A stretch of DNA of 63,811 bases, filler included, from Sluysia triapertura (taxonomy: Eukaryota): assembly GCA_046118255.1 (NCBI GenBank). It is 5 parts of 5 records of this genome, joined end to end, with 100 filler letters (N's around TTAATTAATTAA, not from the genome) between each part and the next. Parts side by side here need not be neighbours in the genome. Positions count along the whole stretch, not along the records: positions 12,263 to 26,493 come from JBJNIA010002561.1; 4 more parts are not named here. One strand, written 5' to 3'. Made by a program: the position numbers and the translations under genes. A model generated the notes under the pieces. It saw only the letters and a list, made by a program, of their open reading frames with translations, was not told where the DNA came from and did no database searches. Shown here one piece after another: positions 20,310 through 22,846 of this stretch; within the stretch, counting starts at the first letter, position 1; each line of letters starts with the position of its first letter.

Positions 20310-21022
20310 AAATTAGAAACATATTTAGAACCGGTAACCAGAGTAACTATCCAAATAATATAATGCAACCAAAATTAATGCAATGTTCTAATGTCATGGC
20401 TCCGGAATATAGAATAGATGATAATTTGTGGATAGCACTACCACACAGTGAGCCAAGTGAAAACTCCAGAAATTATATGATTGACTGAATTAAAAGGAAA
20501 ATTAAAATTCTTAGCTACAAAAAATATACCTAATTCCGGTATTTATACAAATAATGATATTCAAGCGGTTTGGCGGGAAATATTATTAACTGAAATAGTA
20601 GATAAAGCAACAGTAGAGAAAAACGGACAAGTGAATTATGAATAACTATTGGGACTCGATCACTTGAAAAGAGCCGCACAAGACACGCTGAAGCATATAT
20701 GGGGAAAATTTTTAATATTAGGACAAGCGTCTTCAGGATTAATATGAATTTACATAATATTTAAGTAAGTGCACTAATAATATCTCAGGCATTTTCAGTA
20801 ATTGGAATTTATAAAATATCAGGATTTACATGGAGACTAATAATCGGATGTTTCCCATTTTTAGCAAAATATCTATTGCATCACCACACCAACGCACAAA
20901 TAAATACACTGAGAAAGGAAAGGCATCAAACAGAAGAGAGACAAAACAATGAAAATGAGGAAATTATAGAAAACCAGAAACTTTTTGAAGATCAAACAAT
21001 TAACGAAATTCAGAAGAAATGA
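20310..21022 (+). pseudogene. env: C-terminal part of a chuvirus-type envelope glycoprotein (env), decayed
   Basis: Manual translation: YLEPVTRV..MQCSNVMAPEYRIDDNLW..NSGIYTNNDI..LKHIWGKFLILGQASSGLI*IYIIFK..IYKISGFTWRLIIGCFPFLAKYLLH; ectodomain end and hydrophobic segments in the order recalled for this family. Confidence 0.75.
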
Positions 21023-22846
21023 ATTTATCCCATCACTCCAATATCACCGCCACACGTAATGTACATGATCTGTGCAAACAATAATTACAATGGTTCAAAA
21101 AGACCAATGGTAAATATAAGAATAAATGGAAGAATGGTCTTAGCATTAATAGATACTGGAGCCGTGGCTTCTTTGATTAATGAAAGTTTCTTAACTAAAG
21201 ACGAATTAAAAAGCCTTGCCTACCACACTTCTCATCTATCAGGAGTTACAGGAGATGAAATTAATATAGTTGGTGTAATGAAAGCTATTTGTGAAGTAGG
21301 ACAAAATGAATTAGAAATTAAGTTACGAGTTATGTAAAAATGTCCTGAAGAAATGATAATGTGAATGGACATATTATCTCAATTAAAAGGAATCACCTTA
21401 GATTTCGATCAAGTAAGACTGATGGATAGTATATCAAGAAGAGTTATTGGTGATGATGATGTGTACATAGATGAACCACTTTGGTTATTAAAAAGAAGTG
21501 AATATATAATGCCAGCTATTAACAGGCAGTATTATGTTTATTGCATCAGAATTTAATCAAGAAAAGTTAGACATAGGAATAGCAAGTGCAGTATGCAATA
21601 ATTGTGAAGGAAGAATACCTGTTCGTATTATAAATTATACAAATGATATCAAATGGCTTTATACCGGTACTAAGTTAGGAAGAATTATAAGTATACAATA
21701 CCTGCACATATTAATATGATAATGGAATCCAAAAATAAGTTGGAAAATAAAACTGAGAATAATATAAAATTACAACGCGAAATACAAGAGGATTACAATG
21801 AAATCGAAATCACTAATAAAAACACTAACAAATAAACAAATAGATCAGCTATACGATGTTATTTATCCGAATAAATACCATTAATAGATAAAGTAATTCG
21901 AAAAGCCATAGAGAATACCCATATGTAATCAAAAAGAGATGCAAGATGAAATAGTGGAGGATAAGGCCAAATTTCTCTCCATTTTCATCTCCTGTTTTAC
22001 TATTCAAAAAGGATGGCACAATGAGATTCTGTTTAGATTTCATGGAATTAAATAAAATAACATGAAAATATGAAATGTCAGATATGCGACATATTTTACA
22101 ACTCTAGATCTTCAAAGTGGTTACTGGTAGATAGAGATTGCCGAGAAAGATAAACACAAAACTGCATTTACTTGTGGTGATGAATTGAATGAATGCGAAA
22201 AAATGCCTTTTGGATTGACTAGTGCATCTACGACTTTCCAGCGGTGCATGGATTTCGTATTATCTGGCTGTAAAACTGTTATAGTATGTATTGACGACAT
22301 AATAATATTCTCTAAAGATTTTGACACGCATGTAAAGGATATTGATAATATTTTAAATAGACTGGAGATAGCTAGATTAAAAATCAAACCTACCAAATGT
22401 GTCTGGGCTGAAGAGAAAGTCGAATTTCTAGGACATATAGTGTCGAAAGAGGGAATAAAACCCAATCCGAGAAATATTGAAGTGGTTAAATTTCCACAGC
22501 CAGACTACCTAAAAAAGATAGAAAGCTTTTTGGGTTTAACTAATTACAAACTAACTATATAAGATTTGTTAAGTATTTCGTTAAAATAGCACAATCACTC
22601 AGAAAACTGACAAAGAAAGATGTTGAATTTAGATGGACAGATGAACAAACAAAAGCCTTCAAAGAATTAAAAGAACGGCTAACTACAACACTCATATTAA
22701 TATTTCCAGACGTTAACAAACCATTCATACTCACTACGGATGCTAGCAATTATGCTATCGGAGCAATTCTGGGACAAAAGGATAAGAATAACTTAGAAGC
22801 GGTAATTGCATACACTAGTCAACGATTAAACGAAGCCGAAATGAAA
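21023..22846 (+). mobile_element. pol: Ty3/Gypsy pol pseudogene: aspartic protease, RT and 5' RNase H
   Basis: [80 protein letters not shown]; multiple stops and frameshifts. Confidence 0.95.

Follow-up and report, generated by a model that had tools for sequence, protein, structure and literature searches.

The locus examined here raises a question of gene order. It asks if a Ty3/Gypsy element can be recognised in which a chuvirus-type envelope (env) stands upstream of, and in frame with, protease and reverse transcriptase (RT), and if the stop codon between envelope and protease is a signal for readthrough or damage to the particular copy. An initial annotation had proposed such an env-pro-pol element at 20310-22846. 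All positions are those of the window, by which we mean the whole 63,811-nt stretch of Sluysia triapertura DNA analysed; it is AT-rich (GC 20-35%) and contains assembly gaps.

Envelope remnant in frame with the protease

The features of the copy, together with a loose envelope fragment elsewhere in the window, are given below (P numbers denote related proteins).

20322-20452 (+): what a 5' truncation has left of the env ectodomain, in the first two of the frame pieces (P0121 aligned by tblastn from residue 1698 on)
20454-20762 (+): env membrane-proximal region and start of the transmembrane segment, with stops at 20643 and 20745 (PF24664; 29-54% identity to env relatives; hydropathy 1.59)
20765-21019 (+): remainder of the transmembrane segment, then a second hydrophobic stretch and an acidic tail, in the protease frame (open 85-aa frame; homologous to the env C-terminus of relatives)
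21020-21022 (+): stop codon where env meets protease, likely decay peculiar to this copy (codon different in at least 5 of 8 other contigs; 11 relatives open)
21023-21400 (+): aspartic protease, single domain, with stops at 21335 and 21362 (Pfam RVP, E 2.3e-9, frame 21023-21553)
21400-21710 (+): protease-RT spacer, where Burro has a dUTPase-like domain (aligns to P0121 2308-2365)
21961-22559 (+): reverse transcriptase, frameshifted and with stops (RVT_1, E 2.7e-24, 22077-22559; 57% to P0001/P0121)
22544-22855 (+): connection and first half of RNase H (Pfam RT_RNaseH_2, E 8.7e-24)
22860-24450 (no strand): unrelated DNA, ~1.6 kb long, by which RNase H is interrupted (P0121 residues 2788 and 2794 flank it)
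24505-24768 (+): second half of RNase H, decayed (tblastn P0002, E 7e-10; P0121, E 1.7e-6)
11791-12162 (-): N-terminal env fragment, same env family, next to an assembly gap (PF24664 profile 72-155, E 5.3e-12; 30-39% to relatives)

Only the C-terminal third of the envelope is present at the element, split over four frame pieces. Its assignment comes from PF24664, the Monjiviricetes fusion glycoprotein family, which in Pfam matches 20481-20762 over profile positions 464-560 of 653 (E 3.2e-8) and, when the single frame 20301-20762 is used, over positions 408-560 of 653 (E 3.6e-11); the score of the env pieces exceeds the curated cut-off. The chuvirus-type envelope of the initial annotation has thus obtained its match to a viral glycoprotein profile. 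Among PDB sequences the env piece had no real match. The piece at 20378-20452 aligns with P0121 residues 1716-1740 at a score reached in 0 of 200 shuffles. The membrane/tail piece has no Pfam env match by itself; among the 19 relatives searched, 14 align to it through their env C-terminus (E ≤ 0.003), as do 2 cluster members, and its identity to P0121 is 44% over 50 aa. The separate fragment at 11791-12162 is likely an insertion of its own.

Three-frame translation of 20765-21334 reads, in order, membrane region, tail, the stop at 21020-21022 and the protease with its DTGA motif, and the glycoprotein peptide quoted in the initial annotation does share one frame with the protease, interrupted near 21020 as had been said. 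An open stretch of the 255 nt preceding the stop arises in 0.055% of 20,000 shuffles of the same composition; the 135-nt tail by itself is stop-free in 3.7% of shuffles. The distance from membrane anchor to catalytic Asp is ~107 aa in the copy and 104, 104 and 109 aa in P0125, P0128 and P0127, respectively. The statement that the ORF track misses the element entirely needs correction, four pieces of 85-143 aa being visible when frames are listed from stop to stop.

The pol part and what this copy has lost

Protease, RT and RNase H follow one another in the copy, and the matches to RVT_1, RT_RNaseH and RT_RNaseH_2 are of the Gypsy type. The spacer at 21400-21710 has no Pfam match, dUTPase included, and neither has the interrupting DNA at 22860-24450 in any of six frames. 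The element does not end at 22846 as first proposed, since RNase H resumes at 24505-24768.

No gag, N-terminal env or integrase adjoining the element was recovered by Pfam or by alignment to P0121, for which the lowest shuffle p in 9 frame tests was 0.035, and a candidate integrase start at 24450-25050 was rejected for want of a significant alignment to P0121. No LTR pair was found around the truncated copy within the window, and no tRNA gene was found. The coding pieces from 20481 on contain 15 stops and several frame switches, in agreement with the decay stops noted initially. Considering these stops and frameshifts, the RNase H split by ~1.6 kb, and the gag, LTR and integrase not found, the copy at 20322-24768 is dead and unable to make any polyprotein product.

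Other features were observed in the window. At 16565-17371 (-), ~3 kb away from the element on the opposite strand, lie one or more exons of a host nuclear receptor that encode a C4 zinc finger (PF00105, E 4e-7). A very high-copy repeat at 18034-18834, unrelated to the element by the tests run, has no Pfam match; to the eye, its minus-strand translation looks like the 3' end of a LINE. The stretch 19369-19900 is repeated in contigs of the sequencing run considered below, shows short internal repeats with contig joints at 19603-19639, and has no second copy within the window; it might be an LTR or the end of another element. An ORF of 188 aa at 40241-40807 (-) resembles, by eye, a Gypsy gag of another family and has no Pfam match. 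A RING-finger ORF at 5208-5744 (+) (PF13639, E 4.5e-6) has a basic motif in common with the ORF at 29901-30278.

The junction in other copies

Other copies of the family were seen as short contigs of one sequencing run, possibly the window's own source, with no intact copy among them. Many diverged copies exist, with up to 102 contigs differing from the window at single env sites, 49 at a protease site and 62 at an RT site. One contig matches the window exactly at the junction, and five of the seven other listed pieces span position 21020, reaching 31 letters or more to either side; two of the five are gap-free. The stop site is covered by eight further contigs, as judged from a neighbouring difference; four differ at the first position of the codon and five at the third, the state of the codon being read from these position differences and not contig by contig. 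The junction counts come from the difference rows listed, beside which 56 more rows exist.

The stop might be functional, as the initial annotation had considered in suggesting readthrough. The family would then keep a stop after the Env tail and produce Env-Pol at a low rate. The location of the stop is what one would expect of a regulatory stop, in the linker and ~27 codons ahead of the protease domain, and a stop-bearing subfamily is compatible with a sample of eight contigs. Against this, at least five of the eight contigs differ within the codon, 14 further stops occur in the coding pieces from 20481 on, and 11 relatives are open at the junction, the open frame being seen at 52-58% RT identity. 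Absence of the same stop codon from at least five of eight contigs, together with the open frame of the intact relatives, makes programmed readthrough very improbable. What inspection of other copies did establish is linkage of env and protease across the junction; a conserved stop it did not.

Intact relatives and the RT tree

When the env piece was used on its own as a HMMER query, 19 proteins were returned, every one of which (19/19) matches PF24664. The conserved membrane anchor is reached in 14 of the 19. In 11 of these 14 the ORF runs on to encode a protease, recognised by Pfam at E ≤ 0.001 in 10 cases and at E 0.0018 in P0132. The other three end 17-61 residues past the anchor, short of the smallest anchor-to-protease distance (87); because they end before that distance, they are uninformative and leave room for a free-ending Env. 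Earlier word-index protein searches with the tail-plus-protease piece (804 candidates) and the env piece (41) had returned nothing, weak evidence that the full HMMER search overturned. Scans of viral contigs with protease and RT found no relatives, and a metagenome scan with the protease found none; with the RT, the metagenome scan gave 8 loci at 34-41% identity, 0 of 8 with env similarity.

The most complete picture of an intact member is provided by P0121 (3735 aa, P0001 cluster), one unbroken ORF of gag-env-pro-RT-RH-IN. Its gag contains a Ty3 capsid at 20-178 (weak, E 0.011) and a CCHC knuckle at 298-312; a hydrophobic segment at 1270-1288 precedes a PF24664 envelope extending to 1912 (E 1.2e-91), after which come one degenerate and one intact protease, then RT, RNase H and integrase. 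P0121 is colinear with the window over env (20322-20759), membrane/tail (20774-20923), protease, spacer, RT and both halves of RNase H. A gag CCHC motif is present in P0121 and in P0128, and an integrase follows RNase H in P0121, P0122, P0123 and P0141. Sizes vary from 2627 aa (P0123) to 4844 aa in P0141, which includes ankyrin. P0123 is deposited as the Flavobacteriaceae MAG protein HBK71150.1, likely a eukaryotic contamination of the bin. The AlphaFold model of P0126 (mean pLDDT 65, pTM 0.41) predicts long strands and a 48-residue central helix at 444-491, and its modelled Env would be compatible with a class III fusogen.

The RT search gave 168 matches; the best among the 120 listed is P0001 at 57% identity. 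All 120 listed matches carry Gypsy-type RT/RNase H families, and one bears the name errantivirus polyprotein. In an RT tree of 35 rows (the window, 7 chosen relatives and 27 from the upper ranks of the 120 listed matches), the window groups with all five env-pro-RT proteins tested and with P0002 and P0003 at support 99/91, and a second tree gives the same core. The assignment to Ty3/Gypsy stands on these RT/RNase H families and on the weak Ty3 capsid match of the closest relative. A BEL/Pao backbone was rejected because the listed RT relatives carry Gypsy-type RT_RNaseH and Integrase_H2C2.

These results also bear on chance nesting, that is, a fragment of an endogenous chuvirus glycoprotein having come to lie next to an unrelated Gypsy pol. 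The absence of gag and of the N-terminal two thirds of env, as well as the loose env fragment elsewhere in the window, would suit it. However, other copies bridge the junction, independent env and RT queries recover the same kind of env-pro-pol protein in one RT clade, and colinear single-ORF relatives such as P0121 refute it; we regard its probability as negligible. The placement of env upstream of and in frame with pro-pol was thus confirmed by 11 of 14 relatives, by colinearity with P0121 and by the bridging contigs, and its expression with pol as one polyprotein finds its counterpart in intact relatives, e.g., P0121.

Two further traits recur. Two to six protease domains follow Env in the same ORF in P0121, P0122, P0124, P0128, P0129, P0131 and P0141 (the window copy has one), and P0122 has a further protease domain after the integrase. 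In P0121, P0123, P0002, P0003, P0122 and P0141 the integrase is followed by a long in-frame extension with at least one strongly hydrophobic segment. These extensions, signal-like plus transmembrane in several cases and lacking a Pfam match, likely represent a second membrane protein, as judged from their sequence. The available portions of PMC6431247 and PMC13524379 mention neither tandem proteases nor a second membrane protein.

Interpretation and proposed polyprotein route

Based on direct observation of domain order, common frame, open junction in relatives and linkage in other copies, the element is very probably a decayed, 5'-truncated copy of a multi-copy Ty3/Gypsy family with a gB/chuvirus-type env in frame with pro-pol; in intact relatives gag-env-pro-RT-RH-IN forms a single continuous protein, and decay is the likely origin of the stop at 21020. 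The copy is a fossil and adds little by itself. The family it belongs to offers a natural test of how retrovirus-like assembly can proceed from a polyprotein in which Env stands between Gag and Pol.

Hydropathy of the relatives and established rules of ER targeting suggest how such a polyprotein may be handled in intact members. Gag would stay in the cytosol, and an internal signal segment after it would start transfer of the Env ectodomain to the lumen of the ER. At the transmembrane segment the chain would re-enter the cytosol, with protease, RT, RNase H and integrase attached to the tail of Env. Cleavage by signal peptidase would part Gag from Env, and cleavage by the element's own protease would free Pol. 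The ratio of Gag, Env and Pol would be 1:1:1, and Pol may reach the budding particle on Env rather than as a Gag-Pol fusion.

In Ty3/Gypsy elements and retroviruses, Pol is usually packaged as Gag-Pol. With one frame running through env, this route would be closed except where splicing removes env. A gag-pol RNA spliced in this way would restore the usual packaging and make Env tethering irrelevant even with a continuous frame. Consistent with an exchangeable env slot, the place of env before the protease is taken in P0002, which belongs to the window's RT clade, by a short domain outside PF24664 that contains signal-like and transmembrane segments. We consider splicing rather unlikely. Delivery of Pol on Env might extend to the whole env-first clade, Pol arriving as the cytoplasmic tail of the Env trimer and the tandem proteases and post-integrase membrane protein being the machinery of a membrane-anchored assembly; this broader idea is offered tentatively, as a possibility we do not favour outright.

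Comparison with known systems

Env placed before pol is a published layout, described for planarian Burro in 2019 and for flatworm, nematode and bryozoan elements in 2023/2026, so that the possible novelty left open by the initial annotation falls away on what the available text of PMC6431247 and PMC13524379 describes. Membership of the element among env-first, gB-type Gypsy elements is well supported. Troyka elements were rejected as relatives since, according to the accessible part of PMC12440569, they encode no envelope. Anakin BEL/Pao elements carry a chuvirus glycoprotein (Dezordi et al. 2020, PMC7642597, available portion); the glycoprotein family is the same, whereas their backbone is BEL/Pao and the RT relatives here are Gypsy-type, with env preceding the protease.

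As excerpted from PMC6431247, the giant planarian Gypsy Burro/GYPSM1 (Arkhipova & Yushenova 2019) is an element of 25-30 kb with an ORF of ~4,900 aa, in which env lies in frame between gag and pol and matches mononegavirus fusion glycoproteins, a spacer separates protease and RT, and BCL2, BIR, MATH or ankyrin domains occur. Compared by that description, likeness exists in the env-protease frame of the copy, in the whole gag-env-pol ORF of P0121 and in a weak BCL2-like match of P0126 directly before env, as in Burro (E 0.00096, below cut-off). Where Burro is described with a dUTPase-like domain between protease and RT, the copy has a conserved spacer. The element may belong to Burro or to a smaller relative, the copy having lost everything upstream of the env C-terminus and with it the size and accessory domains that could be set against those of Burro.

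Nematode non-canonical endogenous retroviruses have env before pol (Sacco et al. 2022, as cited in the available part of PMC13524379). Their hosts belong to another phylum than that of the window element, whose host is probably a planarian, judging from its resemblance to Schmidtea elements. The abstract of the nematode study is said to describe a continuous gag-env-pro-pol ORF.

The closest published context is the set of GAG-ENV-POL elements from Platyhelminthes, Nematoda and Bryozoa whose env is of the gB type (Chary & Hayashi, eLife 2026, PMC13524379). As far as the accessible text goes, these elements are not monophyletic, and nine entries are from flatworms, six of them Smed_errantivirus_1-6 of Schmidtea mediterranea with 1-215 intact copies. 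A supplement label, 'GAG-ENV-POL_POL_RT', hints at one ORF, a single env-pol ORF not being stated in the text available. The elements of Chary & Hayashi are intact whereas the window copy is dead. A cysteine bridge of type C1a is among the characters of that group; the copy has lost env domains I-II. With the HSV/gB-type GAG-ENV-POL errantiviruses among them, as there described, the copy shares the chuvirus-like env and its location 5' of pol, and the window's env fragment at 11791-12162 matches Smed_errantivirus_1 in 27 of 81 residues (ungapped, counted by eye), which we report as within the 32-64% of six pairwise rows among Smed elements in the accessible part of that study.
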